DNA from: a virus
Lineage: Duplodnaviria; Caudoviricetes
DNA length: 63,787 nucleotides
Strand: one strand, 5' to 3'
Virus record (IMG/VR): IMGVR_UViG_3300025151_000033
Span: 1 to 63,787 of that record
In this document: positions 4,250-43,750 of the stretch, one piece after another
Layout of the letters: every line of letters begins with the position of its first letter
Position numbering within the stretch: the first letter of the stretch is position 1
Made by a program: the position numbers and the translations under genes
Notes under the pieces: model-generated
What the model was told of the DNA's origin: nothing
The model's database searches: none
Seen by the model: only the letters and a program-made list of their open reading frames with translations

Positions 4250-4582
4250 TTAATCTCTCCTAAATGGATTAAAAGGCTCTTTTTCTTCTTCCTCTTCAGG
4301 TTTATCTAAAAATTGACCGCCTGTGTATTTTGCTTCTCTTTTGGCTTTTTCTTCTCTTAGCCTTTTTTCTTCATTGAGTCTAATAGTTTCTTTTCTTTTT
4401 TCATTTGCCTGTTGTTGTCTTTTAGGAGAAAGAGGTCTGTTTGGCTTATCGGAATATATATTTCCACGATTCTTTTTTCTTTTTAAAGCAGGTCTTTTTG
4501 TTGCAATTGCACCATATTCTTTGAAATCAAATGAATCGCTTCTTCCAGCATATCCTCTTTTGAGTATATCTTCCCAATTCAT
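4250..4582 (-). CDS. hypothetical basic protein
   Basis: 110 aa, starts MNWEDILKR, tightly packed operon. Confidence 0.65.
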   Translation of the reverse strand: MNWEDILKRGYAGRSDSFDFKEYGAIATKRPALKRKKNRGNIYSDKPNRPLSPKRQQQANEKRKETIRLNEEKRLREEKAKREAKYTGGQFLDKPEEEEEKEPFNPFRRD

Positions 4583-5235
4583 TGTAATTTCTCCTCCATC
4601 TTCTTTCTAACATCTAACCAAACATCAGGATGGTTTTGAGCCAATACTTCTTGAACAATCTGCATTTGTGCTACAATAATAGTATCTTGTCTTTTATGCA
4701 CCAACTTGCCCTTAAACTCCATAAGATACTTCAAAGACTCTCTAATCTCTTTTGCAAGTTTAGTTAGGCTATCAATATACTTTGCACTAATATCATCGTT
4801 AGCAAACAATTCATCAATCTTAGTTTCTAATCTTCCGATATTATGGGAAAGAACATCTATTTCATTAACTTCTTTCTTTGCTAACTGAATTGCTGCGGAT
4901 TTCTGAACAATAGGTTGTAAATGGTGTTTCATGTGTCTATACACTTGGTCTTGAGTCATTTCTAAAGAAACTGCAATTGCACTTGGAGTTAATTCTCCTT
5001 CACTTAATGCTCTTTCAAAATCGGCTCTCATTGGATTAGTGCAAAAATTACATTGAGGATTTGATTTATTTACATAATCTCCCATGTGATTTCTCATGTG
5101 TTTAGCAGTAGTTCCACTTTGCCAATTATTTTCTCTATCAACGGCATCTGCATGAATTTGATTTGTTTCAAGCATAGCCTCAATATTCTCCCTATCAGGA
5201 GATTGACACAATTTACACCTTCTGCGAGTTACCAT
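4579..5235 (-). CDS. tandem CxxC-HTH-HxxxH protein, putative terminase small subunit
   Basis: Two modules (CKLC...KHMRNH; CNFC...RHMKHH) followed by a coiled coil. Confidence 0.45.
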   Translation of the reverse strand: MVTRRRCKLCQSPDRENIEAMLETNQIHADAVDRENNWQSGTTAKHMRNHMGDYVNKSNPQCNFCTNPMRADFERALSEGELTPSAIAVSLEMTQDQVYRHMKHHLQPIVQKSAAIQLAKKEVNEIDVLSHNIGRLETKIDELFANDDISAKYIDSLTKLAKEIRESLKYLMEFKGKLVHKRQDTIIVAQMQIVQEVLAQNHPDVWLDVRKKMEEKLQ

Positions 5236-5237
5236 AT

Positions 5238-5660
5238 TTAATCCCTCTTCATGTTTCTTTTATTCTTTGGCGGTTCATAGCCTCTTTCTCTATAAAACGC
5301 TTCATCATATTTAAAATCAGAATCTTCGGGTTCTTGTCCTTGAAAGAATCCTACTCCATGAGCATATTCAAAATCTATTTTTCTTCCTAATCTCCAATAT
5401 TCCTTTTGTTCATCTGAATCTGTTTTTGCTCTATGCCATTGATAATAAGGGTGGTCATGTATGTAAGTTTTAGGTTCTTCGGGTTCTTGTCCCAATTCTC
5501 TTTCTATTCTTGCTCTTAAATCTCTAAGAAGTTGTTTTCTTTTTGGTTGAAGAGGATGATTTTCTTTTCTTTTTGGTCGCATTATTCTATCTTCCGCCAT
5601 ATGTGCTTGAACCATTCTCCAAGCATCATCTTGACTTATTTTAAGAATATCTTGCCACAT
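5238..5660 (-). CDS. hypothetical protein
   Basis: Likely start MWQDILKIS at 5660, just after the stop of the upstream ORF. Confidence 0.65.
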   Translation of the reverse strand: MWQDILKISQDDAWRMVQAHMAEDRIMRPKRKENHPLQPKRKQLLRDLRARIERELGQEPEEPKTYIHDHPYYQWHRAKTDSDEQKEYWRLGRKIDFEYAHGVGFFQGQEPEDSDFKYDEAFYRERGYEPPKNKRNMKRD

Positions 5661-8437: not shown

Positions 8438-8724
8438 TTTGTTCACCATTGGGGGTATAATTTTTTAATCCTACTTTTTTTCAAAAAATGGGCGCAAATT
8501 TTTTCGGCACTTGCAAAATTTTTTATATTTTATTTAATCTATTTCCAGAATAAAATTACTAAATAGTTATTTTGTTTTTTATATTATGTAATATTTATTT
8601 AAATGTTTTATTATTGCAGTTGAATTGATTTGTTTCATTTATATCTGCATTAATTAACCAAGTGTATGTATAATTTCTGTCTAATTTGACCATATTTGAG
8701 TGATTTAGATATATAATTTGAGTA

Positions 8725-8883: not shown

Positions 8884-9101
8884 TTACTAACCCCTCAAAT
8901 CCTATGATACAGGAACAGGTTATATAGTTAATTGACAAATGCCAATATTTACTACCCACCAAATTAAAATACAGCAAATAAAGGAAAATAAAAAAATTTA
9001 ATGCAAAGCCATATGGTTGTATAACTGTCTAAATTCAAATATTAGCATATGGATAGGCACTTTGAATGTTTATCCTTGCATTAGGGTGAATTACCTAATT
9101 A

Positions 9102-9307
9102 ATGGATTGAATCAACAACTGACCCAAGACCAAACGCTCTTCGGTGTATTAACGAGATATTGCTTCACAATAGCGCAATTGTGGAGATGCAACTTTAGAA
9201 ACGGTAATTCATACGCAATCGTCCCTGTGCGGAAATGTGAGATTCGGGGTAATCAATTGTAAGTCCTCAAAATCCACCCATTTTGCCTGAAATATGGCAC
9301 TTGGGTT
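9102..9307 (+). ncRNA. candidate structured ncRNA cassette
   Basis: ATG 38 nt after the palindrome is followed at once by a stop; GACCCAAG(9121)/CTTGGGTT(9300) closing stem and hairpin 9160-9192. Confidence 0.3.
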
Positions 9308-9383
9308 CTTATACCTCAAAAGTTACGACCATATGGTAGTGCTTTGTTGATACCGCAGAAATTACTCTTGAAAACCAATTGAC

Positions 9384-9689
9384 ATGGAAACCAATGTGCT
9401 TAACCAATTGTTGATGAATAAAGGTGTGTATGATAATATCGCTGGCTTTTGGTTTGAATCCGTTGCTATGCGTGAAATTTGCATGAATGAATCTAATTCT
9501 CTCAAAGAGTTTATTTCTCACCCTTTGAAAGAAGAATGCGCTCGCAATTGGGCAATTGCTACTCGTTGCTTTGAATCTGTTGAAACTTTGATTATGCAGA
9601 CTATGGCGACTGAAGTTGAAGAAATGCTCAATGCTAATCCTATGTTGGGTATTTTGGCTATGATGGAAATGGCTTTCAATAATGAGTAA
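9384..9689 (+). CDS. hypothetical protein (cassette gene)
   Basis: 101 aa; ATG 38 nt after palindrome 9317-9346. Confidence 0.7.
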   Translation: METNVLNQLLMNKGVYDNIAGFWFESVAMREICMNESNSLKEFISHPLKEECARNWAIATRCFESVETLIMQTMATEVEEMLNANPMLGILAMMEMAFNNE

Positions 9690-9815
9690 AGTCATACCGA
9701 TGACGATGTTTAGTGCATCTGAGGTATTAAACCAAAAGTATCATACCATATGGGTTTAACTTTGAGGAATAAAACCCCAAAGGGAAAAACCGAAGTTTTT
9801 TGTGGTATTTTAGGC

Positions 9816-10295
9816 TTAATACCAACCTCCAGATTGAGCAACATACTTGCCCGAATGCTGGAAATCATCACAATCATTACACCAAATAGACCAATAATGC
9901 CAAGTAGCCCAATCTGCGGAACAACCGTCAGTTTCAGCATCTCCATCACCGTCAATATTGGTTGAACCACAATGAGGACATTTTTCAACAGAAAAACCCT
10001 TTTCTTTCATTTCAGCAACTTTACGCTCAACTTTCATATATTCTTGCATAGTGTTCATTTCCCAGCGAGAAATCATATTTGGAACTTCTTCAACAATAAT
10101 CTTGCCAACAACAATCAAAAGAGCAAATTCTTCCATTGAATAGTATTCAGACTTCCAATTTGCATATTCACCACGACCTAAATAAGCATCATCTGGGTGC
10201 TTATTAGGATTAGTGTAAATACCAATCATACCATCTCCAATCATCAATTTATCATATGTATAAGTCCTAACTTCCGTATTAACTGCTTCTGCCAT
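9816..10295 (-). CDS. hypothetical Zn-ribbon protein (cassette gene)
   Basis: 159 aa, CPHCG...CNDC; ATG 39 nt from palindrome 10334. Confidence 0.75.
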   Translation of the reverse strand: MAEAVNTEVRTYTYDKLMIGDGMIGIYTNPNKHPDDAYLGRGEYANWKSEYYSMEEFALLIVVGKIIVEEVPNMISRWEMNTMQEYMKVERKVAEMKEKGFSVEKCPHCGSTNIDGDGDAETDGCSADWATWHYWSIWCNDCDDFQHSGKYVAQSGGWY

Positions 10296-10461
10296 GATAA
10301 TAAGGAATTTATGTTAGTTTCAAGGTAATGCCACAAAGTTATTACCATATGGTGTTACTTTGATTAACCATATGGGCGAGCAAATCTAATGATTTGAGGA
10401 AATGTGCACCTTTCCCTCCTTTCTCGCCCAATTAGTGCCTATATCAACCATTTGTTCACCT

Positions 10462-10671
10462 CTAATCCATATCTGGATTAAATTCATCAATTACCAATTC
10501 ATCTGCATCTTCCCGATAATCAATAGGAGTATCAAGATAATGCGTGTCATCTTCCTCAATGTTTTCCTTTCGGATTTCATCAAGCAATTTACGCTCATGG
10601 GAAGTAATACCCCACTTTTTACGCATTTTTGTCTTTTCCGCTTTAGTAAGTGGCTTATCTTGGTCGGTCAT
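10462..10671 (-). CDS. hypothetical protein (cassette gene)
   Basis: MTDQDKPLTK..., ATG 38 nt from palindrome 10709. Confidence 0.65.
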   Translation of the reverse strand: MTDQDKPLTKAEKTKMRKKWGITSHERKLLDEIRKENIEEDDTHYLDTPIDYREDADELVIDEFNPDMD

Positions 10672-10778
10672 GCTAATTAGGGAAATGACATAATACAAGG
10701 TGTTTACTCAAAGTTTCACACCATATGGTTATACTTTGATATAATCCCTGCCATTTAGGACTTACGGGATTTATTTGC

Positions 10779-11519
10779 TCAAGAGGAATTGCGAGCCTCA
10801 CGAACTTGAGCAATAATATCAGGGGTGCATTCCGAGCGAGATTCGGTAATTGCATCAAAGTGGCAATCAATTGAAGGATTTTCAACATCATAGCCAAATT
10901 TCTTCAACTTCAAACGACCTTCAACAACTGATTGGATTTTACCCATATCAGCAAGAACACTTTCAACCATCATCTTTTCAATGACTTCTTTTCTTTGGAC
11001 TTTCTCACTATTCCAAACAATAACGAATTTCAATTCAATAGTTCTGTATGATTTATCAATGGTGGTTTGCATAGTGATTACTTCATTATCAACATTGAAG
11101 ATTTGATGAACACCAGCACCATAGCCCATTTCACCTTCAAGACCATCAATTTCAAGATAGCAGAATTTGTTAGCAGGTTGCTTCCAAACCTTCTTTGTTT
11201 TCTCATTCTCATTTCTAATCATATTGACTTCAACATCTTCATTATTGAAATAACGATTCAAAGCATTGACAACCTTGTTAGCATCGGAAGTCCAATTAAA
11301 GGACTCAAAATGCTCTCCATCAATTTCAATATCATAAGTAGTCTTTGAAGTAGTCTCTTCTTTGAAACCATATTCGCAATCATCATTATCATAGTCCCAA
11401 CGACCAACCATTGAAACTCCCTTCTTATGCAATTCATGGGACAATTTACCCCAAGACACATCATTCAAGGCTTCACCATCATAACTTAATTCCATTGTTC
11501 TAACATATTTAATTGACAT
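10779..11519 (-). CDS. hypothetical protein (cassette gene)
   Basis: 246 aa, GGAG SD, lies between palindromes 10709 and 11570. Confidence 0.8.
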   Translation of the reverse strand: MSIKYVRTMELSYDGEALNDVSWGKLSHELHKKGVSMVGRWDYDNDDCEYGFKEETTSKTTYDIEIDGEHFESFNWTSDANKVVNALNRYFNNEDVEVNMIRNENEKTKKVWKQPANKFCYLEIDGLEGEMGYGAGVHQIFNVDNEVITMQTTIDKSYRTIELKFVIVWNSEKVQRKEVIEKMMVESVLADMGKIQSVVEGRLKLKKFGYDVENPSIDCHFDAITESRSECTPDIIAQVREARNSS

Positions 11520-11631
11520 TTTAACTCAACTCCATTGATTAGGTTTTTTCACATACCTTTAAGGTATTTCAAAGTTACTACCATATGGTCACAAACTTTG
11601 AGAATCGTGCCCCGAAGGACACCTTATCGGA

Positions 11632-11889
11632 TTAATACCGATAAGATTGGGAAACCGAGATTTCCTTCACTTTGTAGGGCAAATTCTGCATTTCCCGAAC
11701 CAATTCAGCAAAAGCACCCTTGTTATGACCACGCATAGCACCATTCATTTTATTTGCCTTGACAGCAAGATTGTGAAGAATATTGTCATTGTAAGACTTT
11801 GCACATTCTTCAGCAGTATGCTTGTATTGAAAATAAGCAACTGTCATTGTTCCAGAATCGTTTGTTTTAACTACTTGATAGACCTTCAT
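11632..11889 (-). CDS. hypothetical protein (cassette gene)
   Basis: 85 aa; ATG 37 nt from palindrome 11926. Confidence 0.7.
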   Translation of the reverse strand: MKVYQVVKTNDSGTMTVAYFQYKHTAEECAKSYNDNILHNLAVKANKMNGAMRGHNKGAFAELVREMQNLPYKVKEISVSQSYRY

Positions 11890-11965
11890 GGGAATTAGGT
11901 TTTTATGGGTTAGTTATGGTATTCACAAAGTTATTACCATATGGATGCTAACTTTGAGATAATCC

Positions 11966-12094
11966 TCAATTCCCTTTTCTGGGAATATCTTGGAAATGCC
12001 GCAATTTCATCCATTGACGCTTGCTCATGCCATATTTCTTGACATTCTTGATAAAATTCCTGTAATTCTCGGTTGTAGTCCAATCTTCTTTCAT
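11966..12094 (-). CDS. small basic protein
   Basis: 42 aa MKEDWTTTENYRNF..., ATGA-coupled to the upstream gene. Confidence 0.45.
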   Translation of the reverse strand: MKEDWTTTENYRNFIKNVKKYGMSKRQWMKLRHFQDIPRKGN

Positions 12095-12279
12095 TCTTCT
12101 TCATCTCCTAAACATTCTTCGCAAATATAGATACCATCGCCAAAATCAATCAAATCCCAATCATTGTCGCAATATTCGCAACAAGGACCATCTCCAGCAT
12201 ACATATCAATTAACTTATCAATACCATTCGGGTCGTTAGCACTAATACCAGACATTTGACACAATTCCCAATAACTCAT
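12091..12279 (-). CDS. small acidic Zn-finger protein (cassette gene)
   Basis: MSYWELCQ...CEYC...CEEC; ATG 36 nt from palindrome 12315. Confidence 0.65.
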   Translation of the reverse strand: MSYWELCQMSGISANDPNGIDKLIDMYAGDGPCCEYCDNDWDLIDFGDGIYICEECLGDEEE

Positions 12280-12405
12280 GGGAATATGAAATATTAAGAT
12301 GTTCAAGGTTTCCTCAAAGTATCAAACCATATGGTGTCATACTTTGTCATTACTCCCCAACACCCCTAAATTGGGGGTTGAAGAGGGAATAACGCCCAAT
12401 TAGCA

Positions 12406-12960
12406 TCATTCCTCTTCTTGAGCCTCCATTTGCTCAACAATGTGCCAATTCACGATTGGCGCACCGTTTTCGTCCATGCTTCCGTCCCACTTATGACCTT
12501 CACGGTTTTTGGTGTGATTTCGGTAGTAGCGAGTATAACGGGTTTTAACCGCTTTACCCTGCAACTTAGCGTATTCTTCAGCAGACTCATAAAGACCGCC
12601 TCCGCTTTTTCCATGCTTTTCAATCAATGACGACATATTACCTGTGTTGTAAAGTGTAGTGTAGTTTTCAACCGCTTGAGCCTCAAGGTTCAAGATTAGT
12701 TGATTAATGTCATCTGGAAGGTCGGTTTCACGACCTCTTGTGATAGGTGAATTAGGCAACATACCGAATAGTGTAGTAATTGAAGTCCAATACCTTTTAC
12801 GGTTTGCACTATCACTATCACCTGTTGCTATGTTCCATTCAATAACTTGACTCATTTCTCCAATATCGTTAGTTTCAAGGAAAGTCATTACCTTTGACTT
12901 ACGCTTGTTCCACGATTCATCGTCCATACTATAATCTCCTGCCATACTTTTCATCTCCAT
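12406..12960 (-). CDS. hypothetical protein, paralog of 15499-15981
   Basis: Shared motifs P.SP..RG, KHGK.GGG, EYA, WDGS.D. Confidence 0.8.
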   Translation of the reverse strand: MEMKSMAGDYSMDDESWNKRKSKVMTFLETNDIGEMSQVIEWNIATGDSDSANRKRYWTSITTLFGMLPNSPITRGRETDLPDDINQLILNLEAQAVENYTTLYNTGNMSSLIEKHGKSGGGLYESAEEYAKLQGKAVKTRYTRYYRNHTKNREGHKWDGSMDENGAPIVNWHIVEQMEAQEEE

Positions 12961-13101
12961 ATTTGTTTGCTATTTTGGTTGTTATTCCCTCTCAACCATT
13001 AATTAGGTTTCACTTGGGGTTAAATAAGGTAATTACAAAGTATGACCATATGGTAAGATACTTTGTTACGCACCTCAATAATACTTATAAAAGTAATTAA
13101 C

Positions 13102-13209
13102 ATGAAATTGAAGCCTCAATATCGTTGTAAGGAATGTAATAAGGTAATCAACAAGTGGCGTGAAATCTGTTATACTTGTGAATGTGAAGGTAAAGGTGAA
13201 GAAGAATGA
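13102..13209 (+). CDS. tiny Zn-finger protein
   Basis: MKLKPQYRCKECNKVINKWREICYTCECEGKGEEE; ATG 37 nt after palindrome 13036-13065. Confidence 0.55.
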   Translation: MKLKPQYRCKECNKVINKWREICYTCECEGKGEEE

Positions 13210-13361
13210 GTAAAGTAGTTGGTTGGATTATTTTTCTTGAAGAAGAAGATGAAAATGGTGATATTAACTTAGTTGATTGGAATATTAGCAATTGGCTCGC
13301 AAATGAAATAGATGTGGAATATGCTGAATTGTTAGAAAATATGGAAGGTGAAGAAGAATGA
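13206..13361 (+). CDS. small acidic protein
   Basis: 51 aa MSKVVGWIIFLEEEDENG..., ATGA coupling at both ends. Confidence 0.55.
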   Translation: MSKVVGWIIFLEEEDENGDINLVDWNISNWLANEIDVEYAELLENMEGEEE

Positions 13362-13558
13362 GTAAATTTCAAAAAAGGCATTATGAAGCAATTGCAGAAG
13401 TATTCGGGACTTTTAACGAGAAAGACCTTTATCATCTTGATGATATTATAGGTGCGTTTGAAGCATTGTTTATCAATGATAATCCTCGTTTTGATGTTCA
13501 AAGGTTTTGGGATAGAGTTAAGCACTACATAGACAATTATTCCCCCAATTGGGATTAA
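13358..13558 (+). CDS. hypothetical protein
   Basis: 66 aa; KRHYEAIAE...DNPRFDVQRF, a pattern seen in small phage proteins. Confidence 0.7.
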   Translation: MSKFQKRHYEAIAEVFGTFNEKDLYHLDDIIGAFEALFINDNPRFDVQRFWDRVKHYIDNYSPNWD

Positions 13559-13730
13559 ATTACTGTGGAGAGCGTTTTTGATTGTTTTCGCTCAGGCAAG
13601 AGAGCCACGCATAGGGTGAATGTGCAAATAGCCGAAATAAAAAACAATCCCCGCCTTTGGGTCAATTCAAAGTATTACCATATGGTTTTACTTTGTCAAA
13701 CCTTATTCAATACTTAATTTAACCTAACTA

Positions 13731-14003
13731 ATGTTCGGCTTTAGCGGGCTGGACAGGAGTTGGCTGAATAATATCTTAGCATCGGTATAAAGCAATACAT
13801 TCAAGGTGGTTCTTGCACCTCTTGAGTTATGGTCGGTGTGAAAAGCATTCGGCACTAATTCTAAGTGAAAAGTTCGTAATGGGAGGTTTCCCCCTATCAT
13901 GCCCGATAGTTAGACAATGTATGTAATGTTGGTTTTCAAAGAACTATAGGTGCTGAAAAGCCCCGACATTTGCAGGTAAATAGTAATCTTGCACTCCACC
14001 CTT
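13731..14003 (+). ncRNA. candidate structured ncRNA cassette
   Basis: Starts 36 nt after palindrome 13668-13695; only a 19-codon ORF; stems 13734/13768, 13801-13825, 13925-13970 and 13971-13993. Confidence 0.45.
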
Positions 14004-14026
14004 TATTATTCTCATAGGTGATTTTT

Positions 14027-14335
14027 ATGCGTTTTTCACAAAAGAAAGGACAAATGAACTGTAATTACTTGAACAAGGCAAGGTCAAATCTTGCTCGCAA
14101 AAACAAGCAAATGAATAACATTCGCAAGCAAAAGTTCAATGAGTCTAAATACCGTGATTATTCTTCAAAGCGAGCATTTGTTAGCCAATGGAAGTGCTAC
14201 TTCCCAAAGACTACACTTGACCGTAAATGGAATCAAATGAAGAAGAATGCAGGAAAGAAGGTCTTTACCCCTTCTCCGCTTCAAGACACAATTGAGAAGT
14301 TGGAACTCGGTTGGGGTAATTCGCTATTTAGTTAA
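14027..14335 (+). CDS. hypothetical basic protein
   Basis: ~102 aa, GGTGA SD upstream. Confidence 0.65.
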   Translation: MRFSQKKGQMNCNYLNKARSNLARKNKQMNNIRKQKFNESKYRDYSSKRAFVSQWKCYFPKTTLDRKWNQMKKNAGKKVFTPSPLQDTIEKLELGWGNSLFS

Positions 14336-14426
14336 AATAGCCCTCTTCGGAGGTAATGTCAAAGTATTACCATATGGTAATATAACTTTGTGGCTTACCT
14401 TGTTTATGTATATATCACTAATTACC

Positions 14427-14591
14427 ATGTATGACACAGAATCAATGTATAATGAACTTCTTGATGATATTTACGGTGAAATAGAGATTTGTGGCACTAA
14501 ATGGTGGGCTTCTGTTGCATTGAAGCGAATTGACCCTATTGCATACCGTTGTGGTCTTTCTGACTATGAATCTTCGCTTGAAGAAGAATAA
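14427..14591 (+). CDS. small acidic protein (cassette gene)
   Basis: MYDTESMYNELLDDIYG...IDPIAYRCG; ATG 37 nt after palindrome 14360-14390. Confidence 0.7.
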   Translation: MYDTESMYNELLDDIYGEIEICGTKWWASVALKRIDPIAYRCGLSDYESSLEEE

Positions 14592-14798
14592 ATTCCTCTT
14601 TGCCTCCATTTGAGCGTCCTAACCCCTTTTGTGGTGATTGTGGGCGGAATGCTACTTCTGGGTGCAGGTAATCAAAAAAACTTCCTCCGTTTTTTCCTCT
14701 TTTGAGGTTTTTTCTTCTCAAAGTGACAACCATATGGTAATACTTTGTAATTAGCCCAAGTATAGGTCAAAGTTATCCTATTGTTGGAGGAATTGACT

Positions 14799-14984
14799 AT
14801 GAACGAACCACAAAGCACCAATGAGCCTGTTATTGTTGTTGAACCTAAATACACTATTGAAGTAGGGCATGACCGTTATCAAAACCTTATCATCAAAAAA
14901 CTGCGAGTTAGTGGAGATGATTTGGAATCGGTTATTACACAACTACAACAGGCATTGAATGACTTTCGGATGCTGGAAATCTGA
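14799..14984 (+). CDS. hypothetical protein (cassette gene)
   Basis: 61 aa, GGAGG SD, downstream of palindrome 14719-14747. Confidence 0.65.
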   Translation: MNEPQSTNEPVIVVEPKYTIEVGHDRYQNLIIKKLRVSGDDLESVITQLQQALNDFRMLEI

Positions 14985-15498
14985 CCCAACATAAACAGGC
15001 TAATTATGATTGGTGGGATTTCTTAGTTGAAGATTTACCCGACCCGTTGAAAGACAAAGACAAAAAGAAATAATTCACTTTTACACGACAACCTGCCCCT
15101 TGAAGTAAAAACCTCACTAAATGGTGCTTGAACGCTTAATATCCATTGACGCTCTCTAAGGCATAGGTTAGTAAAAAACAAAATTGGCGTTTGAAACGCT
15201 GATGGCGATAATTGGTTTTATCCATGCCGTGTAGTCTTATTTCTGTCTTTTTACGGCATTGGTAAGGTAATGACAAAGTATTACCATATGGTTGTAATGA
15301 AATATAAAAGAATGTGTGAAAGTTATGAAATTGTCGTCTTTCAGCAGGGTTATTTCTGTTAAATATGACAATGATGCGATGTATCAATTGTATCATTTGT
15401 ATCAAACCATATGGTAATGCTTTCGCTTATTACCCTTTATATACACTCGTTGTGTGCTATTATTGCTCACAAGAGCGCAAAAAAAGGAGAGAGAAAAA

Positions 15499-15981
15499 AT
15501 GGAAGAAGTAAATTGGAATAGCCATGTGCTTGAACTTGAAGAATTTATGGCAACTGACGCAGTTAGCGAACAATTGTCCCAAGTCCTTCAATTTCAAATT
15601 AATCTTGGAAATGAAAATGAAGAACAAAGAGAAAGAGTTTGGGACTCAATTAAGTCCTTAATTCGTGGAATGCCTGGAAGTCCTGTGCGAAGAGGAATTA
15701 AACCTTCTTTGCCAGCCGCAGTTCGTGTAGTTGTTGATTCAGTCGTTAATACCGTTGAATCGGCATCAACCGACTTTTTCAACGCAGACCCAACAATTCA
15801 GGCAGTTATCCTGAAGCACGGAAAAGCAGGTGGAGGCGCATTTGCCTCTTCAAGCGAATATGCAACATATCTCGGAAAGAAAGCAAGAACCGCTATGACC
15901 CGTCTTTACAAAGATGGTGCATGGGACGGAAGTCTTGACGGACTTTTGGGAACTGTTGAGCATTCCGATGAAGAAGAGTGA
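15499..15981 (+). CDS. hypothetical protein, paralog of 12406-12960
   Basis: MEEVNWNS..., GGAG SD, TTTATATA box at ~15436. Confidence 0.8.
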   Translation: MEEVNWNSHVLELEEFMATDAVSEQLSQVLQFQINLGNENEEQRERVWDSIKSLIRGMPGSPVRRGIKPSLPAAVRVVVDSVVNTVESASTDFFNADPTIQAVILKHGKAGGGAFASSSEYATYLGKKARTAMTRLYKDGAWDGSLDGLLGTVEHSDEEE

Positions 15982-16022
15982 ATTAACTCTTAATTCATCA
16001 AGAAGGCTTGAAAACAAATGAT

Positions 16023-16057
16023 TGGTGGTGGGGAGTATCTTTGACTCCCCATCACCA
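16023..16057 (+). terminator. GC-rich hairpin, putative terminator
   Basis: TGGTGGTGGGGAGT...ACTCCCCATCACCA downstream of 15981. Confidence 0.55.
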
Positions 16058-16578
16058 TGATGTTTTCATGGTAATTAGCAAAGTATTACCATATGATTGT
16101 GAATTGTCTAAACTGACACTTCGCATTCGGCTACGCTGACCCCCTTCATATACCCTGCCATGCCTGTATCATTGAGAAGGCTTGTTGAGTTTTCAGCCAA
16201 CAATACCTTTAACCGATGATTTACCTAAACTGATAGTCAATACTTTCTATCTTTGTATAGTAAAAATTGTATATCATTTTCAAGGTATCTATTAAGGTCA
16301 TTCAATCATTAAGATTATTGTTCAGTATAGCGTTTAGATAAATAATTACTATCAATAGTATTATAACTAAACCTACTGAAAATTAATGGTGTGGGGTCTG
16401 AATCGGTATATAAAGAAAGGAATGTCTCATGTATCTCATCACAGATACAAACAAAATGAGCAGATTCTTGGATAGTTTTTATTCATTATGTTATTATTAT
16501 CAATTGTATTAGTAGTAGCATAGTAGTAAAGGGCATATCCTCCCGAATCCGACTAAGCGGGAAAAGATATGTCTAAGG

Positions 16579-16745: not shown

Positions 16746-17468
16746 ATGACTGTTAAAGACAATAAAAGATTAAAAGAACTTCAAGTATGGTATATTTGTG
16801 CAGAAACATTAGGTTTACTTGATGGGAATAGAGTTAGGAAAAAGAAATTGCTTGACTTATATTCTAAATCAAGAGGTTGCACACTACAAACTGCAATTAA
16901 TCATTTCAATAAGAAAGGGATGAGGAAATACTTTTCACAAGCAAAAGATAGAAGTGCTAAAGGTCAATTAATTAAGGCTTTGAAAACTAAAAACGGATAC
17001 ACTATTGAAATAGATTCAAGAGTATCTAAAGACATTAAAGGTGTAATGAAAAATACCATTGTTCCTACTGTTAAAGCAAGTATGGAAACAGAAGGTCGTC
17101 AAGACTATTGGAAACAAATTAAAAACATGAGTGTTAAAACAAATAGAAAACACTACAAGAAAATATACAAAAAGGTGGACAAATACATGGACACAATTAA
17201 AGATAATAATAATGAATCACAATCAAAGATTGCTAAGAAATGTGCTGAAATTACAGACTTCTTACTAAGTAAGAATGACCAATATGGAGATTCAGCACTA
17301 ACTCCAATTAGAATCTTTAGTAAATCAGATACTAAAGAACAATTGAGAGTTAGAATAGATGATAAATTAAATCGTCTATTACAAGGTAATGAAAACATAG
17401 AAAAGGATGAAGATGTAATTAAAGACCTAATTGGTTATTTAATTCTTCTTCTTGTATCTATGGATTAA
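16746..17468 (+). CDS. protein with C-terminal DUF1599/Nmad1-like domain
   Basis: KNDQYGDS...RIDDKLNRL...DLIGYLILL. Confidence 0.55.
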   Translation: MTVKDNKRLKELQVWYICAETLGLLDGNRVRKKKLLDLYSKSRGCTLQTAINHFNKKGMRKYFSQAKDRSAKGQLIKALKTKNGYTIEIDSRVSKDIKGVMKNTIVPTVKASMETEGRQDYWKQIKNMSVKTNRKHYKKIYKKVDKYMDTIKDNNNESQSKIAKKCAEITDFLLSKNDQYGDSALTPIRIFSKSDTKEQLRVRIDDKLNRLLQGNENIEKDEDVIKDLIGYLILLLVSMD

Positions 17469-25989: not shown

Positions 25990-26886
25990 ATGGATAACTG
26001 TTTAGACTGTGGAAATAATGACTATAACTATGACGAAAGATTAGGCGAGTTTGCTTGTAATTTATGTGGATTAGTTGCAGTATCAGATATTGTTGAAGAA
26101 ACTTCAACAGGTTTTACAAAGAACGGTGAAGTAATTAGAAGTGCCGATAAAGGACACTTAGGTTCTTTTATTGGAAAAGAAAGAGGAAAAGGATTTGCTA
26201 AATTGAGAAACACACATACTCGTAGTGTTAATTCTCAAGAAAGAGCATTAAAGATAGGTATTACTCATTGTAATATGGCTTTATCAGAATTAACTGATGG
26301 TCATTTTACAGATGAATTGAAAGAAACAGTTGCGTCTTATTACCGAAGAGTTATTTCCGCACATTTATTGCGTGGAGATTCTTATGAAGTAAGAGCATCA
26401 GCAATTGTATATTATGCCATGAAAGAGTTTGGATTTTCTATTACTCTTAATGAATGTGCAGTTAAAACAAGTGTAATGGTTAAACCATTGTTTAAGGCAG
26501 TTAGAAAGATTGCGACATTTATGAGAAAGCCTCATTTGCTTTCAACAAGAAATGCTCAAACTGATATGGAAAAGTATGCAAAGAGAATTAGTGAAGAAAG
26601 AGAGTTTATTAAAGACTGTTCAACAATTGGTGCTTATTTAGAGCGTCTATATGATAGTATGAATAAACCAATCACTACAACATTCTTTGCAGTAGTTTTG
26701 TATATAACTGCTGAATTGAGGAAAGAAAGAATAACGCAAAACACAATAGCGAAGTCTATGGATATAACTACTGTTACCATTAGAAGCAATTTAAATCAAA
26801 TTCTTAAAGAGTTAGGAATGCCGAATAGACATTTATTGGCTATGCTAACTGTTGAAGATTTTGTAAGTGGCGTTAGATATGATTAA
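25990..26886 (+). CDS. tfb: transcription initiation factor IIB (TFB) homolog
   Basis: N-terminal CLDC...GEFACNLCGLV Zn ribbon, cyclin repeats (LLRG...ASAIVYYA), C-terminal HTH ITQNTIAKSMDITTVTIR. Confidence 0.85.
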   Translation: MDNCLDCGNNDYNYDERLGEFACNLCGLVAVSDIVEETSTGFTKNGEVIRSADKGHLGSFIGKERGKGFAKLRNTHTRSVNSQERALKIGITHCNMALSELTDGHFTDELKETVASYYRRVISAHLLRGDSYEVRASAIVYYAMKEFGFSITLNECAVKTSVMVKPLFKAVRKIATFMRKPHLLSTRNAQTDMEKYAKRISEEREFIKDCSTIGAYLERLYDSMNKPITTTFFAVVLYITAELRKERITQNTIAKSMDITTVTIRSNLNQILKELGMPNRHLLAMLTVEDFVSGVRYD

Positions 26887-26903: not shown

Positions 26904-27458
26904 ATGAAAAAGATATTAGTAATAGGTGCAGGTGGAATTGGGAGTTATTTAATTCCGATTCTATCAAGAGCAGGAATTTATAAAATACAAGTAAATGATG
27001 ATGATATAGTGGAAAGTAAAAATTTACTCTATCAAAACTTTAAAGAAGAAGATATTGGAGAAAACAAAGCATTAATTATGGAGAATCAATATACTAATGT
27101 TGATTCAAGACCATATAAAGTTTTAACTGAAAAACAATTGAAGGGTTTTGATTTAGTTATCTGTTGTGCAGATAATTTAGATGTAAGACGACTATTATAT
27201 CGTAGTGAAACAGAATGGTTAGATTTGCGTTCTCAAGGAAGAAACGCAGTATTAATTTCTTCGGAGATTGATAAACAAAAAATGGATACTGTTTTAGTTG
27301 GACCAGAAGGTAGTTTTTCTTGTCAAGGAGATTCATGGACAGGAAAGGCTAAAGATGTTCATTATACTCATATTGCAGTTGCAGGAATGGGCGCACAATG
27401 GACACAAAGAAAAATGAATCAAGAAGAAGTGAAAGACTTCATAATTATAAATATTTAA
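26904..27458 (+). CDS. ThiF/MoeB/E1-like adenylating enzyme
   Basis: VIGAGGIGS, DDDIVESKNL.YQ, NKA, DLVICCADNLDVR. Confidence 0.88.
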   Translation: MKKILVIGAGGIGSYLIPILSRAGIYKIQVNDDDIVESKNLLYQNFKEEDIGENKALIMENQYTNVDSRPYKVLTEKQLKGFDLVICCADNLDVRRLLYRSETEWLDLRSQGRNAVLISSEIDKQKMDTVLVGPEGSFSCQGDSWTGKAKDVHYTHIAVAGMGAQWTQRKMNQEEVKDFIIINI

Positions 27459-27472
27459 AGAGAGTGAATAAA

Positions 27473-28153
27473 ATGGCATGGAATGAGAAAGAAGAAGGAC
27501 TATTGTTGGTTTTGTATGATGAGGGATTAACTCACACAGAAATGGCTGATGTATTGAATAGCACATTTGGAACATACAAGACTCATAAATCTATTGAAAG
27601 GAAGTTATCACGACTAAGAGATAAATACAATCTTCCTACAAAGAAAGAAGTAAAGGAATCAAAGACGGTTTCTTCCCCTCCTGTTGAAGAGAAAATGGAG
27701 GTTAAAACTGAAATCCGTCAAATTGAAAAGGAGAAGGTTGATATACCCCCGACTCAAAAAACCAATGTAAAATCAAAGAAGGTGAAGAAAGTGCAAAATA
27801 CCACAAAGAGGCGTTCAAGAAAGAATTGGACTGTTGCTGAAGATATGATTCTAATTGCTCATTATGGGCGAACAACTGATGAAGATTTGTCTAATGAACT
27901 TGGAAGGACTCTTAGCAGTATGCAGTATCGTTATCGTAAGATTACTGCGGATAAGGCTTATGTTGGCAATTTAGTTATTGCAGGTCTTGAGAACTCCAAT
28001 TTGAATCTAAAGTATAGAGATGGAGAAGTTGTTGCAGTTAAGAAGCCTTCAAGGTTTAAACTTTGGAGATTGAAGCGTATGGAGAAAAAGGCGTTAAAGG
28101 CTCAAGTAAAGGCTACAAAACTTCAAAACAAAGTCAAGGGGATGAAAGAATGA
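27473..28153 (+). CDS. DNA-binding protein with two Myb/GcrA-like HTH repeats
   Basis: WNEKEE...KSIERKLSRL and WTVAEDMIL...ELGRTLSSMQYR. Confidence 0.6.
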   Translation: MAWNEKEEGLLLVLYDEGLTHTEMADVLNSTFGTYKTHKSIERKLSRLRDKYNLPTKKEVKESKTVSSPPVEEKMEVKTEIRQIEKEKVDIPPTQKTNVKSKKVKKVQNTTKRRSRKNWTVAEDMILIAHYGRTTDEDLSNELGRTLSSMQYRYRKITADKAYVGNLVIAGLENSNLNLKYRDGEVVAVKKPSRFKLWRLKRMEKKALKAQVKATKLQNKVKGMKE

Positions 28154-28647
28154 ATATTGATGATGCAAAGATAATTAATGCTTATTGGGCTGATGAGATT
28201 CAAAAAGCATGGGATAGTTATTTGGAAATAAATCCTCAACCTAATGGAGAAGAAGTTTTCCTTGATTTTGATGATTTCTTAGATATGATTTGGGAACAAA
28301 GTATTACTGCTTTTGATAAGCCAAGAGAGGTTCAAGTTGTAATTGATTGTAATAATCAACTATTCATTAGTTTTGGAACTCCAGGATTTGTTTCTTTTGA
28401 ACATCAAGAAGAAGAATTGCATGATAGAAAGCAACCAATGACATTACCTATTATTTGTTGGATTCATACTCACCCATTCGGTAGTGCTTATTTTAGCGGA
28501 ACTGATTGGAATACAATTAGAACATGGGAATTACACATGAATAGTGCAATTGTTCTTGGTAATAATGAAAGAATGCTTTGGACTAAAGAAAGAAAAGACC
28601 ATACTGTATTTTACAGAAATGGAACTATTGTGGAGGAAGAAGAATGA
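28150..28647 (+). CDS. JAB/MPN+ (JAMM) metalloprotease
   Basis: REVQ (catalytic E) and HTHPFGSAYFSGTD = HxH-x7-S-x2-D. Confidence 0.85.
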   Translation: MNIDDAKIINAYWADEIQKAWDSYLEINPQPNGEEVFLDFDDFLDMIWEQSITAFDKPREVQVVIDCNNQLFISFGTPGFVSFEHQEEELHDRKQPMTLPIICWIHTHPFGSAYFSGTDWNTIRTWELHMNSAIVLGNNERMLWTKERKDHTVFYRNGTIVEEEE

Positions 28648-41332: not shown

Positions 41333-41653
41333 ATGCACATGGAAGATTATCAAAAATTAGCAATAACTACTGCTATTTATCCTAAAGAACAAGGTTTAGT
41401 TTATACTGCTTTAGGTCTTTGTGGAGAAGCGGGAGAAGTTGCTGAAAAGATTAAAAAGTATATTAGAGATGATGGAGATATAGAAGTTCTTAGAACTAAT
41501 GTATCTAAAGAATTAGGAGATGTGCTTTGGTATATTGCTAATTTGGCACATGAATTAAATTTAGATTTAGGAACAATTGCTTCAGATAACTACCTTAAAC
41601 TTAAATCAAGACAAGAAAGAAATGTTCTTAGTGGTAGCGGTGATAATAGATGA
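41333..41653 (+). CDS. MazG-like NTP pyrophosphohydrolase
   Basis: GLCGEAGEVAEKIKK...KELGDVLWY. Confidence 0.88.
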   Translation: MHMEDYQKLAITTAIYPKEQGLVYTALGLCGEAGEVAEKIKKYIRDDGDIEVLRTNVSKELGDVLWYIANLAHELNLDLGTIASDNYLKLKSRQERNVLSGSGDNR

Positions 41654-43344: not shown

Positions 43345-43750
43345 AGGTATAACTTTAATTAACTTATGTCCTCATGCTATTGATATTAAAGATATTCTTC
43401 ATATACCCGAAAGGCATTGGGTAGCAAGATGTAAGAATCAATCATCTATTAAATATAAACCTACTATTCTTAACTTTCAACATAAAGGAGTTAGGTTTGG
43501 TTTATTAAATGATGTAGTTAGAATTTACAATACTAAGAAAAGTGAAGAAGGAGAAGAAAAAGAATGGAAACCTTTTCCTCCAGAATTACCTTTTACATTT
43601 TATATAGTATCACAAATAACTGCTGATAAACTTAAAGACAGAAATGACATTCTAATACCAGATAGTAAAACAAAAGATGGAGAATTAATTGTTCGTGGAT
43701 TTTTATGTAGTGAAGCGACTTATGTAAATATAGTGGAGTGTTTAGAATGA
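43334..43750 (+). CDS. hypothetical protein inserted between the PolB halves
   Basis: 138 aa, LINLCPHAI...YIVS...RNDILIP; overlaps both neighbours. Confidence 0.65.
   Translation: MKFEGITLINLCPHAIDIKDILHIPERHWVARCKNQSSIKYKPTILNFQHKGVRFGLLNDVVRIYNTKKSEEGEEKEWKPFPPELPFTFYIVSQITADKLKDRNDILIPDSKTKDGELIVRGFLCSEATYVNIVECLE

Follow-up and report, generated by a model that had tools for sequence, protein, structure and literature searches.

The locus analysed here raises the question of whether the short palindromes that punctuate a run of small viral genes are the operators of a regulon or the joints of a recombinational cassette system. The window, that is, the whole 63,787-bp stretch of DNA under study, comes from a group-B-type magrovirus; magroviruses are tailed viruses, which the literature assigns to Marine Group II archaea. 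The initial annotation had described in this window an array of cassettes delimited by a palindrome and proposed either one dimeric-factor site per gene or an integron-, shufflon- or T4-like recombinational system. Our scan supports the existence of the array, since ACCATATGGT (at most one mismatch) has 16 matches in the record, all within 9008-16097 (7.1 kb), against 2.00±1.50 expected from dinucleotide shuffles, and 16 matches were reached in 0 of 100 shuffles. The exact core CCATATGG occurs 15 times across the record, all within 9009-15414, and the 16th copy, at 16089, is CCATATGA, which carries one mismatch. Outside the array CCATATG is found only at 5597 and 49705, both times without arms, in agreement with the claim that there are no sites elsewhere in the window.

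Arms on both sides (CAAAG or CAAAAG to the left, CTTTG to the right) were found at 11 window sites (Table 1) rather than at the 12 first counted, and the number of partial sites, five (cores 9009, 10368, 15284, 15407 and 16089), was as described. Sites are 320-860 bp apart, close to the 280-860 bp given before, with exceptions of 23 bp (10345/10368) and 123 bp (15284/15407). Every site lies between ORFs taken as genes, and the orientation blocks (plus at 9.4-9.7 kb, minus at 9.8-13.0 kb, plus at 13.1-16.0 kb) also follow the earlier description. The three hairpins named at that time all exist; the one at 12348-12396 is strong (-23.3 kcal/mol, z -4.4), and those at 10743-10771 and 14342-14353 are weak (z -1.3 and -1.4). 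The rigid pattern CAAAGT-N16-ACTTTG (up to two mismatches) was not enriched because spacer lengths vary: it gave 9 matches versus 6.15 expected, only one of which is a true site.

Table 1. Palindromic sites of the array, their cargo and associated genes in the window.
Feature	Position	Strand	Details
Partial boundary site, leftmost of array	9004..9018		core CCATATGG 9009-9016; left arm CAAAG touching core, no right arm
Two-armed site, left arm CAAAAG	9317..9346		core 9329; right half, then predicted promoter of gene 9384-9689 (+), CTTTG-ATG 42 nt
Two-armed site, convergent junction	9733..9764		core 9746; ends of 9384-9689 (+) and 9816-10295 (-) meet; promoter on neither side
Two-armed site and second bare core	10334..10375		cores 10345 and 10368 (23 bp on); left half is predicted promoter side of gene 9816-10295 (-), CTTTG-ATG 43 nt
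Two-armed site	10709..10738		core 10721; left half is predicted promoter side of 69-aa gene, ATG 10671 (-), CTTTG at -42; right half toward 3' hairpin of gene 10779-11519 (-)
Gene	10779..11519	-	246 aa; family found in relatives' arrays too
Two-armed site	11570..11600		core 11581; upstream of gene 10779-11519 (-)
Two-armed site	11926..11956		core 11937; left half is predicted promoter side of gene 11632-11889 (-), CTTTG-ATG 41 nt
Two-armed site	12315..12346		core 12327; left half is predicted promoter side of 62-aa gene ending at 12279 (-); right half toward strong 3' hairpin 12348-12396 of gene 12406-12960
'A184' family gene	12406..12960	-	all-alpha, acidic EEE tail
Two-armed site, divergent junction	13036..13065		core 13046; left half upstream of 12406-12960 (-, 'A184' family); right half upstream of operon 13102-13558 (+), CTTTG-ATG 41 nt
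Two-armed site	13668..13695		core 13678
manA RNA (RF01745), cassette cargo	13734..14002	+	upstream of ORF 14018-14335
Two-armed site	14360..14390		core 14370; left side adjoins CCUC-UUCG-GAGG hairpin at end of ORF 14018-14335; right half is predicted promoter side of gene 14427-14591 (+), CTTTG at -41
Two-armed site	14719..14747		core 14730; upstream of gene about 14799-14984 (+), which has a short leader with GGAGG
Partial site	15274..15293		core 15284; left arm only
Site with degenerate arms (right arm GCTTTC)	15397..15424		core 15407, then ACCC-TTTATATAC; upstream of gene 15499-15981 (+), whose leader has AGGAG
Partial site, rightmost	16079..16098		left arm and core CCATATGA
218-aa protein	4579..5235	-	two CxxC...HxxxH three-helix modules, long helical tail

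The motif was also found in related genomes. All five relatives checked carry one 2-7 kb array of the same palindrome, holding 17/17, 16/16, 16/17, 9/9 and 13/13 of their CCATATGG copies, and a gapped-pattern search of IMG/VR matched at least 119 stretches in 111 records, 73 of which are further records with at least four cores. Among 556 cores, 292 have both arms, 176 one and 88 none, where the background chance of CTTTG in such an interval is 0.044. The site consists of two abutting half-sites, CAAAG-N(4-10)-aCCATATGGt-N(4-10)-CTTTG, with a further GGGT/ACCC often present outside the palindrome. The spacer between core and CTTTG ranges from 4 to 10 nt, a variability that fits poorly with a simple rigid dimer and counts against the reading we prefer below. 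Junctions between half-sites comprise 35 TT (convergent), 64 PP and 169 PT, and both arms are present at 22 of the 35 TT junctions. These 35 convergent sites have no promoter to regulate, which is also a point against that reading.

The half-site continues either as a predicted archaeal leaderless-mRNA promoter or as a UUCG-type hairpin at a gene end. CTTTG lies 41-44 nt from the ATG in 105 of 458 half-sites and the core lies 47-53 nt from it in 134 of 581; in a smaller, earlier set, promoter-type spacing was seen in 18 of 130 cases, compared to 3.8% in controls. The ATG-anchored profile of the 105 half-sites has C at -30/-29 (55-58%), an A+T content of 83-88% at -25 to -22 and C or T at -1 in 94%. 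This pattern, with CTTTG at about -42 and ACC(C/T) plus an AT-rich TATA within -31 to -21 (TATA at -27 to -21), suggests a BRE/TATA/initiator promoter behind the inner arm CTTTG, and, as position -1 is a pyrimidine, transcription probably starts at the ATG. Twelve cases of CTTTG at -41 to -44 from an ATG occur in the window, eight of them adjoining array cores, and the predicted promoter type is restricted to the array there. On the gene-end side, the ACCC/GGGT block is the 3' half of a CCC-UUCG-GGG type hairpin, and hairpins were found at 87 of 309 gene-end half-sites versus 9 of 383 promoter half-sites. With regard to cargo, the manA RNA match begins 49 nt past core 13678, which is the ATG position of other cassettes, and the 'A184' family, represented by 12406-12960 and its paralogue 15499-15981 (+), is a hallmark cargo of the arrays.

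Cassettes were also compared between relatives. In L018 and L019 they match end to end at 74-98% identity, with 2 of 7 adjacencies kept and three cassettes inverted, and the window and L022 have common cassette genes in different order and orientation. Inverted or re-neighboured cassettes are found while both array flanks hold their orientation. In 184 junction comparisons, which are non-independent (36 contig pairs, 89 cassettes), the neighbour of a homologous cassette had no detectable similarity in 106, and in 96 of these 106 identity stopped 4-7 nt beyond the core midpoint. Of 425 homology-block ends, 12.2% fell no farther than 5 bp from a core centre, versus 1.9% expected, a 6-fold enrichment, and 70% lay more than 30 bp from any core. 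Sites of small-cassette arrays have only ~10-12 bp in common, yet their cassettes are scrambled in order and orientation. Among the 'replaced' cassettes, some are of nearly the same length and could be orthologues that diverged fast. Most related array pairs are collinear, and adjacency was kept in 14 of 23 cases overall. Two other runs gave contigs (estimated ~92-95% identical) that stay collinear with the window over 4-6 sites each and part from it at 12108, 13209 and 13401-13561, none of which are sites; the only joints that did fall at sites had sides just 21-27 nt long, a length flagged as unreliable. Judged from these alignments, some lineages have a shuffled order and orientation of cassettes, and the proposed shuffling survives the comparison, given that identical order and orientation without breakpoints at the sites is not what the relatives show.

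The region is best described as ~14 self-contained expression cassettes with small accessory genes, and the array may well be, in function, the archaeal-virus counterpart of the mobile regulatory cassettes of T4-type phages, that is, a set of palindrome-bounded exchangeable expression cassettes. Each cassette would comprise a half-site, a promoter, 1-3 small genes or an RNA, a terminator hairpin and another half-site. The strict clade-wide conservation of sequence, with no covariation in hairpins, suggests that a symmetric protein reads the palindrome; this protein would mark one temporal promoter class, probably that of early accessory genes. As a guess, the 218-aa protein at 4579..5235, strongly conserved and syntenic with the arrays, could be a candidate for this factor. 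The palindrome is the only sequence common to all cassettes, and from the observed pattern of exchange we infer a mechanism in which recombination between sites, in one genome or between co-infecting relatives, would excise, insert, replace or invert whole cassettes. A complete site would be rebuilt at every new joint because the core is symmetric, and each moved cassette would keep its own promoter and terminator. The crossover could be the work of a dedicated enzyme or of general or microhomology recombination.

Dedicated site-specific recombination or transposition is a rather unlikely explanation. In it, a viral enzyme of an unfamiliar family, or a host enzyme, for instance XerA, would cut and rejoin CCATATGG at its centre, between CCAT and ATGG, and would use the arms as additional binding sites; the cassettes would then be mobile units similar to those of integrons or shufflons or to MITEs, and the fixed promoter geometry would travel with the cassette end. 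The confinement of breakpoints to the 8-bp core argues for it, since a crossover held within 8-10 bp is short for ordinary homologous recombination, as do scrambling between cassettes of 74-98% identity that have only ~10-12 bp in common at their sites and the presence of sites at every junction type, including convergent ones. Furthermore, the canonical window site (13668-13695) has a layout of 11 + 6 + 11 bp, which we take to be dif-like, and insertion at the central TA of the symmetric core would rebuild two full sites. However, Pfam tyrosine (PF00589) and serine (PF00239) recombinases were found in 0 of 5 records, one of them 100% and another 96% complete, with positive searches in 14/14 and 12/14 control genomes; none was found in the window either, as had been stated. 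In the A184 family, which resides in the arrays, no Tyr, Ser, His or acidic residue is invariant, and the variable arm spacing is unlike the fixed recombinase-binding elements of known sites. The collinearity of the other-run contigs and of most related array pairs also speaks against this explanation.

Collinearity of close relatives and of most related array pairs fits a palindrome that is a pure operator, which would only bind a dimeric regulator of small-gene promoters and have no part in rearrangement, breakpoints at sites being a by-product of intergenic position and fast divergence. This explanation is improbable: the fixed promoter geometry and the restriction of the promoter type to the array agree with it, but the same cassette is found in opposite orientation or with other neighbours between unchanged array flanks, more than half of the junction comparisons lack neighbour similarity, and block ends are concentrated near the core centre instead of spread over intergenic DNA. 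In addition, the palindrome is not only a promoter operator but a cassette boundary, because sites also occur at convergent gene ends, where promoters are absent. A role in RNA or single-stranded DNA, as a hairpin acting as bidirectional terminator, processing site or attC-like folded recombination site, appears quite improbable. Single sites do fold into a hairpin that an internal loop interrupts (-8.5 to -10.8 kcal/mol, z -3.2 to -4.7) and sit between a terminator hairpin and the next promoter, but the spacers are not self-complementary (84/263 positions, 31.9%, vs 38.8% with shuffled partners) and match in length between left and right at just 50 of 292 sites, the sequence of the blocks is conserved throughout the clade without covariation, and each cassette already has its own hairpin. 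Iterated protein-binding sites of a replication origin or packaging signal at a strand-switch region are scarcely credible. The array does lie at the minimum of cumulative GC skew, where gene direction switches, and of 27 contigs with a length of 85 kb or more, 10 carry it no farther than 8 kb from one end; nevertheless, a change in gene direction accounts for the skew switch just as well, the array is internal in the other 17, and 10-17 sites that occupy 2-7 kb and are each linked to the start or end of a gene do not resemble compact origins or pac sites. All these data partly support the interpretation of the initial annotation, each of whose alternatives is partly right: a regulatory site per gene is consistent with the fixed 41-44 nt between CTTTG and ATG but not with sites at convergent gene ends, and recombinational cassettes are consistent with order, orientation and content that differ between relatives and switch at CCATATGG, but not as members of the integron or shufflon families.

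Integron cassettes use attC x attI and IntI, and are mostly promoterless and co-oriented, and the R64 shufflon uses sfx and Rci, its units being alternative ends of one gene. The array resembles these systems in having small unrelated gene units split by imperfect palindromic or repeated sites and in content, order or orientation that varies among relatives with breakpoints in the sites. It differs from both in that the crossover maps to the palindrome centre, from integrons in that no tyrosine recombinase was found and cassettes have their own promoters in both directions, and from the shufflon in that its units are not alternative ends of one gene. Membership in either family was rejected on the recombinase search (none in 5/5 records, two of them 96-100% complete), on these promoters and directions, and on the collinearity of two close relatives over several sites.

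Among viruses, halovirus HF2 has intergenic repeats carrying promoters whose activity has been measured; like the sites of the array, they are found only in intergenic DNA and nowhere else in the genome, have BRE and TATA at canonical distances, accompanied by further conserved blocks both at the start site and upstream, and are conserved in sequence and position among relatives. In HF2 the repeats (7 + 2, of 58 and 29 bp) are direct and non-palindromic and stand at the head of long transcripts, and cassette shuffling is not among the results in the available part of the report (PMC8707807). Halovirus HGTV-1, another archaeal tailed virus with many small ORFs each behind a TATA-like box and an inverted repeat, has its motif before most ORFs of one genome arm, and its authors proposed, by analogy with PeSL, that it regulates transcription and mediates shuffling; the motif was compared by description, and the summary in PMC3950731 mentions no comparative evidence of shuffling. 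The sequence differs, and CCATATGG has only 4 scattered copies and no cluster in the 143,855 bp of HGTV-1 (NC_021328).

The best fit appears to be the PeSL (promoter-early stem-loop) of T4-type phages, a comparison named only in passing in the initial annotation. The predicted promoter of the array is archaeal (BRE/TATA/initiator, leaderless) and that of PeSL sigma-70; what is conserved in PeSL is the stem-loop itself, and in the array a separate, sequence-specific palindrome, which stands between hairpin and promoter and has an invariant 8-bp core; and array cassettes occur in both orientations, with sites at divergent and convergent junctions too. According to the available parts of the PeSL reports, which describe mobile regulatory cassettes (PMC2839356, PMC4122927), both systems share a short conserved element that combines a terminator hairpin with a promoter between small non-essential genes of a plastic region, in both the ends of insertions, deletions and replacements between relatives fall in the motif, and in both the motif is the proposed exchange point between otherwise unrelated sequences.

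The palindrome array is real and clade-wide and, as far as the literature searched goes, undescribed for magroviruses. In the window, which is the entire record (an IMG/VR contig with a rated completeness of 67%), the decamer ACCATATGGT occurs 16 times with up to one mismatch, and all copies lie within 9008-16097. Dinucleotide-preserving shuffles gave an expectation of 2.00±1.50 copies, and 0 of 100 shuffles reached 16. Exact CCATATGG is present 15 times, every copy inside the array, and the 16th core copy reads CCATATGA. The array described in the initial annotation was thus borne out with small corrections. Its estimate of about five partial sites held, while 11 sites, and not 12, are two-armed (left arm CAAAG or CAAAAG, right arm CTTTG); the spacing, given there as 280-860 bp, was found to be 320-860 bp, save for two short gaps of 23 and 123 bp. 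The three hairpins that it named all exist, one of them strong and two weak. The rigid form of the motif, CAAAGT-N16-ACTTTG, was not enriched (9 matches versus 6.15 expected) because spacer lengths vary, and it was dropped in favour of core and gapped patterns.

The clustering is shared by related viruses. Five related records each have their CCATATGG copies in a single cluster (17 of 17, 16 of 16, 16 of 17, 9 of 9 and 13 of 13 copies). A search for related loci with the flank protein at 16746-17468 gave no confirmed relative, and the relatives were gathered by DNA patterns in place of this single protein. The gapped arm-core-arm pattern matched at least 119 stretches in 111 IMG/VR records, of which 73 have at least four cores inside a few kb and 23 have one core only; these single-core records may be chance matches. 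In cellular genomes the same pattern matched at least 120 stretches, and each of the 80 matches listed, from unrelated bacteria and one archaeon, consists of one site only, which is consistent with chance in 596 Gb and has no bearing on the host of the virus. The array lies near a contig end in 10 of 27 long contigs, a weak tendency. In the genome of HGTV-1, CCATATGG was not clustered, the test being for CCATATGG only. The palindrome is not described in the passages searched, which included the main texts of PMC5434244 and PMC11706807; the repeats mentioned in passages of PMC11706807 are terminal or assembly repeats. Likewise, the passages searched in the main texts of PMC5434244, PMC10160649 and PMC11706807 make no mention of a magrovirus promoter motif, and those main-text passages hold nothing on magrovirus transcription signals or mode of gene gain.

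Judging from its predicted genes, the window virus can be assigned to the group B magroviruses (see the table of features). The placement among the magroviruses, a guess in the initial annotation, is well founded because the gene set agrees with the published group B and near-universal genes. Passages of Philosof et al. (2017; PMC5434244) give group B magroviruses a split polymerase, ribonucleotide reductase, GroEL, tRNA-Leu and tRNA-Arg, all of which are present in the window, and passages of a later survey list PolB, ligase, ERCC4 nuclease and glycosylase as near-universal in magroviruses (PMC10160649). Magroviruses are described in the former as globally widespread in surface oceans, with both the viruses and their presumed hosts uncultured (PMC5434244). 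Among deposited phages, the top full-length PolB matches are haloarchaeal tailed viruses, at about 25% identity. The viral TFB homologue is kept in both near-complete relatives (41% and 32% identity) and could redirect the host RNA polymerase to one class of viral promoters. The ThiF/JAB pair beside it may be a ubiquitin-like modifier system in the virus. We also observed that one ORF of 2,469 aa spans 54388-61797 on the minus strand.

Features encoded in the window record, with coordinates and strand where assigned
Feature	Coordinates	Strand	Remarks
218-aa protein	4579-5235	-	two tandem CxxC...HxxxH three-helix modules and a long, very conserved helical tail
manA RNA (RF01745)	13734-14002	+	full-length match; 70 bits versus gathering threshold 55.2, E 9e-16
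TFIIB/TFB homologue	25990-26886	+	Zn-ribbon and cyclin repeat; Pfam PF00382 27.8 bits, over cut-off
ThiF-family (E1-like) ORF, then ORF with weak JAB-domain match	26904-28647	+	adjoins TFB gene
Family-B DNA polymerase, two ORFs	41650-43344 and 43738-44637		
Ribonucleotide reductase			
GroEL-type chaperonin			
ATP-dependent ligase			
RFC-like clamp loader			
ERCC4 nuclease			
Cas4-like nuclease			
Pyrimidine-dimer glycosylase			
tRNA-Leu and tRNA-Arg			

From the core outward, a half-site in the arrays reads T, a variable spacer, CTTTG, a few bases and ACC(C/T), and among 556 array cores both CTTTG arms were found at 292, one arm at 176 and none at 88, with a background chance of 0.044. Beyond the ACC(C/T) block lies either an AT-rich box followed by a start codon or a hairpin of the type ACCCCGAAGGGT, which reads CCC-UUCG-GGG in the sense of the incoming gene, the outer block being its 3' stem. 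Such hairpins were present at 87 of 309 gene-end half-sites versus 9 of 383 promoter half-sites. From these two types of half-site, a cassette is therefore composed of half-site, promoter, gene or genes, hairpin and half-site. A rough ORF-based call classed both sides of 268 out of 474 non-duplicate sites, giving 64 divergent, 169 tandem and 35 convergent junctions; both arms are kept at 22 of the 35 convergent sites, and site 9746 in the window is itself a convergent junction. The palindrome as a promoter element alone was ruled out by the existence of convergent sites, and because sites also stand at such junctions it must be regarded as the boundary between any two cassettes. Selection for a hairpin or cruciform was ruled out as well: left and right spacers have equal length in just 50 of the 292 two-armed sites, and in these equal-length sites 31.9% of the spacer positions are self-complementary versus 38.8% with shuffled partners, single sites being able to fold despite these statistics.

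The promoter side of the half-site was analyzed in 1,053 non-duplicate half-sites; in 581 of them, an ORF of 30 or more codons begins no further than 140 nt away. The distance from core to ATG was 47-53 nt in 134 of the 581, and that from CTTTG to ATG was sharper, 41-44 nt in 105 of 458. The ATG-anchored profile of these 105 half-sites showed C at -30 and -29 in 55-58% and an A+T content of 83-88% at -25 to -22. The positions from -6 to -4 are again AT-rich, -3 is a purine, and -1 is a pyrimidine (C or T) in 94%, +1 being the A of the ATG. In archaeal leaderless promoters, the centre of an AT-rich TATA box lies some 24-27 nt ahead of the start, with a BRE directly upstream of the box and a pyrimidine at -1 followed by a purine at +1. 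All of these features were found in the profile, which is a predicted archaeal BRE/TATA/initiator promoter whose transcript would start at the start codon. A comparable promoter layout has been measured in the halovirus HF2, according to passages of PMC8707807. In the window the genes starting at 9384, 10295, 10671, 11889, 13102 and 14427 fit the pattern, and of the 12 cases of CTTTG at -41 to -44 from an ATG only 2 are outside the array, both in the other 57 kb. Bacterial promoters, considered by eye (sigma-70 -35/-10 and Bacteroidetes -33/-7), were dropped on account of the archaeal gene set and the ATG-anchored profile. The core as the TATA box of a bidirectional promoter was also ruled out, because a separate TATA-like box is present at -27 to -21 and the core lies at about -50 to -57.

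The initial annotation had asked for a test of whether cassette content, order or orientation differs between relatives, and such differences were found. When the arrays of three related records (L018, L019 and L020) were cut at the core midpoints and all pieces compared, cassettes matched from first to last base with 74-98% identity. The order of L019 in L018 numbers is 1, 9, 10, 3, 4, new, -5, -7, 2, -8, 11, 12, 14 and onward, with adjacency retained in 2 of 7 testable cases and the orientation of both array flanks unchanged. Order or orientation also changed in four other pairs (C02/C10, C01/C64, C03/C54 and C15/C54). In the window and its nearest array-bearing relative, L022, the genes p175, p67, p246, A184 and p66 and a non-coding element are common, 3 of these 6 elements are inverted relative to the rest, and the order differs. 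In uncut arrays, 12.2% of 425 homology-block ends were within 5 bp of a core centre versus 1.9% expected, and 25.4% versus 7.4% within 20 bp. Furthermore, we made 184 junction comparisons, each beside a homologous but non-identical cassette pair; they were drawn from 36 contig pairs and are not independent. Homologous neighbours were seen in 65 and weakly similar ones in 13, in the remaining 106 neither blastn nor tblastx detected any similarity of the neighbour, and identity ended 4-7 nt past the core midpoint in 96 of these 106. Small single cassettes, for example of 98 and 72 bp, occur in one genome and are missing from its relative. Misassembly is unlikely as the cause of the scrambled arrays, since the scrambled joints share only about 10-12 bp; additionally, three arrays recur in a second record, 100% identical and in unchanged order.

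The window is matched collinearly by contigs from two further sequencing runs along 9283-11601, 12153-14845 and 13249-16530, each across several sites and at an identity of about 92-95% as estimated from mismatch counts of the pieces, indicating that the window lineage is not shuffling quickly. For the runs X3 and X24, this applies to the covered parts of the stretch. Site-proximal joints in Logan contigs (9035>10340, 9753>12315, 14380>15273 and others) have sides of 21-27 nt, against a caution mark of 30 nt, and were not counted. Most related array pairs are collinear, with adjacency retained in 14 of 23 cases over all non-identical pairs, and about 70% of the homology-block ends are more than 30 bp from any core. 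Variants from other runs have additional breaks at 12108, 13209 and 13401-13561, all of them gene boundaries that lack a site. Some 'replaced' cassettes, of near-equal length in both genomes, may be fast-diverged orthologues.

The reading we prefer, with about even confidence, is that of mobile expression cassettes resembling the promoter-early stem-loop (PeSL) units of T4-type phages, in which the palindrome, probably the target of a symmetric protein, would act upstream in one class of promoters and would also be the preferred crossover point. Its serious rival, which we regard as rather unlikely, is a dedicated enzyme acting at the symmetric 8-bp core. In that case cutting and rejoining of the self-expressing gene and RNA cassettes would take place at the CCAT|ATGG centre, any cassette could be inserted, removed or flipped with the site rebuilt at every joint, and the catalyst would be a new enzyme of the virus or one hijacked from the host. 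The sharp end of identity just past the core midpoint speaks for this mechanism and the collinear pairs speak against it. As the initial annotation had noted for the window, no recombinase was found: the tyrosine recombinase family PF00589 had no match in any of 5 records (the window and relatives that are 100%, 96%, 50% and 45% complete), with matches in 14 of 14 control genomes, and the serine recombinase family PF00239 had none in the same 5 records, with matches in 12 of 14 controls. The wider form of the rival, a clade-wide, enzyme-driven exchange of cassettes in abundant ocean archaeal viruses whose catalyst is no known tyrosine or serine recombinase, we consider unlikely.

A184 is the only gene family marking the arrays (59 of 74, with 1-3 copies) and is encoded in the window at 12406-12960 (minus strand) and 15499-15981 (plus strand). 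Its genes start within 120 nt of a core in 87 of 111 cases, usually with a longer leader than other cassette genes. The two window genes code for paralogues of 160-185 aa whose conserved blocks are P-x-RRG, KHGKSGGG and W-DG and whose EEE tail is acidic. The family has no conserved nucleophile and no match in Pfam, PHROGs or the ESM Atlas; its model is all-alpha (pLDDT 86.8), and fold searches gave a best E of 0.8 in PDB by Foldseek and only two unnamed relatives in BFVD. Given a flank of sufficient length, as in 16 of 74 blocks, the 218-aa protein is encoded at a distance of a few kb from the array, for the most part 3.5-6.3 kb. All eight of its Cys/His residues are invariant in 5 of 5 sequences, and its identity in four relatives is 79, 64, 63 and 48%, the TFB homologue being less conserved (41 and 32%). 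In Pfam it reached 23.8 bits with HTH_20, under the 27-bit cut-off, and PHROGs gave no match; searches of PDB found nothing meaningful by sequence and, by Foldseek with the model (pLDDT 65), a best E of 0.55 with several weak HTH regulators, none significant. A homodimer prediction scored 0.04 versus a mark of 0.42, which argues neither for nor against dimerisation. Hypothetically, the two modules of each chain would bind DNA and the tail would dimerise, an arrangement that would fit a half-site made of core and arm with a spacer of flexible length; alternatively, the protein could have a packaging or structural function.

Cassettes also carry RNA. The manA RNA is cassette cargo, located directly behind a cassette promoter and ahead of a basic 105-aa ORF (14018-14335), and its match begins 49 nt after core 13678, the position of the ATG in other cassettes. 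It was absent from the 10 related loci searched. manA RNAs are known in marine bacteria and cyanophages, so that their presence in an archaeal virus would be unusual. Very small cassettes, with 80-160 bp between cores, were observed in L018 (1541-6006), L019 (1643-5928), L020 (2379-6224) and the related record L008 (7602-7890). They are too short for genes and mostly without CTTTG arms, and each has the motif ACGCT(A/T)AGT-N-(A)ACGAAGTG on either strand. They had no Rfam match and may be small-RNA cassettes; the arrays holding them are the most heavily shuffled. A five-codon mini-ORF (M-V-E-R-E-stop) is found at 13019-13033 on the minus strand, left of core 13046 and 47 nt from it, preceded by a CCTAATTA motif. 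This is the usual leaderless-ATG position, where the A184-type gene has a long leader, and a comparable short ORF is found after core 11581.

Immediately to the left of the array, the stretch 8481-8616 is non-coding and is also present in L018-L022, with 70-81% DNA identity in distant relatives although the proteins of these have diverged far more. It holds the invariant 15-mer TCTATTTCCAGAATA and a GGGC...GCC element between A/T runs, and pieces of it also occur in contigs of other runs. The stretch had no Rfam match at the gathering threshold and may serve as an origin or a strong promoter, or encode a small RNA.

The comparisons are direct evidence for the movement of accessory genes in units that run from promoter to terminator, with one 8-bp palindrome as their joint. 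If the exchange is passive, it would extend the PeSL principle from T4-type phages to archaeal viruses; if it is enzyme-driven, archaeal viruses would have their first integron-like device for gene capture, and its mechanistic class would be new. The array also gives a concrete, testable promoter model for one class of genes. With the palindrome as a sequence tag, the accessory-gene region can be located in 73 or more further viral records, and the palindrome is also a defined DNA probe with which the protein reading it could be isolated.

Several known systems can be compared with the array. Integrons have an IntI-type tyrosine recombinase beside the array, and their cassettes are promoterless, co-oriented and expressed from a common promoter. 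In contrast, no PF00589 match exists in the window and four relatives, and the array cassettes have their own predicted BRE/TATA/initiator pattern and both orientations (PP 64, PT 169 and TT 35, for divergent, tandem and convergent junctions). The R64 shufflon uses the Rci-type tyrosine recombinase on invertible segments that give alternative ends of one gene, whereas here PF00589 likewise had no match and the cassettes are distinct genes that do not share starts or ends. The array also differs from serine invertase and resolvase systems, PF00239 having matches in 0 of 5 records. Membership of the integron or shufflon class, as considered in the initial annotation, fails on recombinase, cassette promoters and orientation. 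The PeSL-like alternative raised there fared better. In passages of PMC2839356 and PMC4122927, PeSLs are small terminator-plus-promoter composites in hyperplastic regions of T4-type phages, where indels and replacements occur and mini-circles can form. The array likewise has a composite of terminator hairpin and promoter between the small genes of a plastic region, and differences between relatives end in the motif (at the core in 96 of 106 junctions with a dissimilar neighbour). Among archaeal viruses, HF2 has promoter-bearing intergenic repeats, according to passages of PMC8707807, and HGTV-1 has a TATA-plus-inverted-repeat motif before most ORFs of one arm that has been likened to PeSLs, according to passages of PMC3950731; the comparative data on the present array far exceed those available for HGTV-1. 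Unlike the sigma-70-like early promoter of PeSLs, the promoter pattern of the array is archaeal. With this promoter pattern and an archaeal-type gene set, the array therefore works like a PeSL system and is not a strict member of it, and by analogy the PeSL system is its closest functional match.
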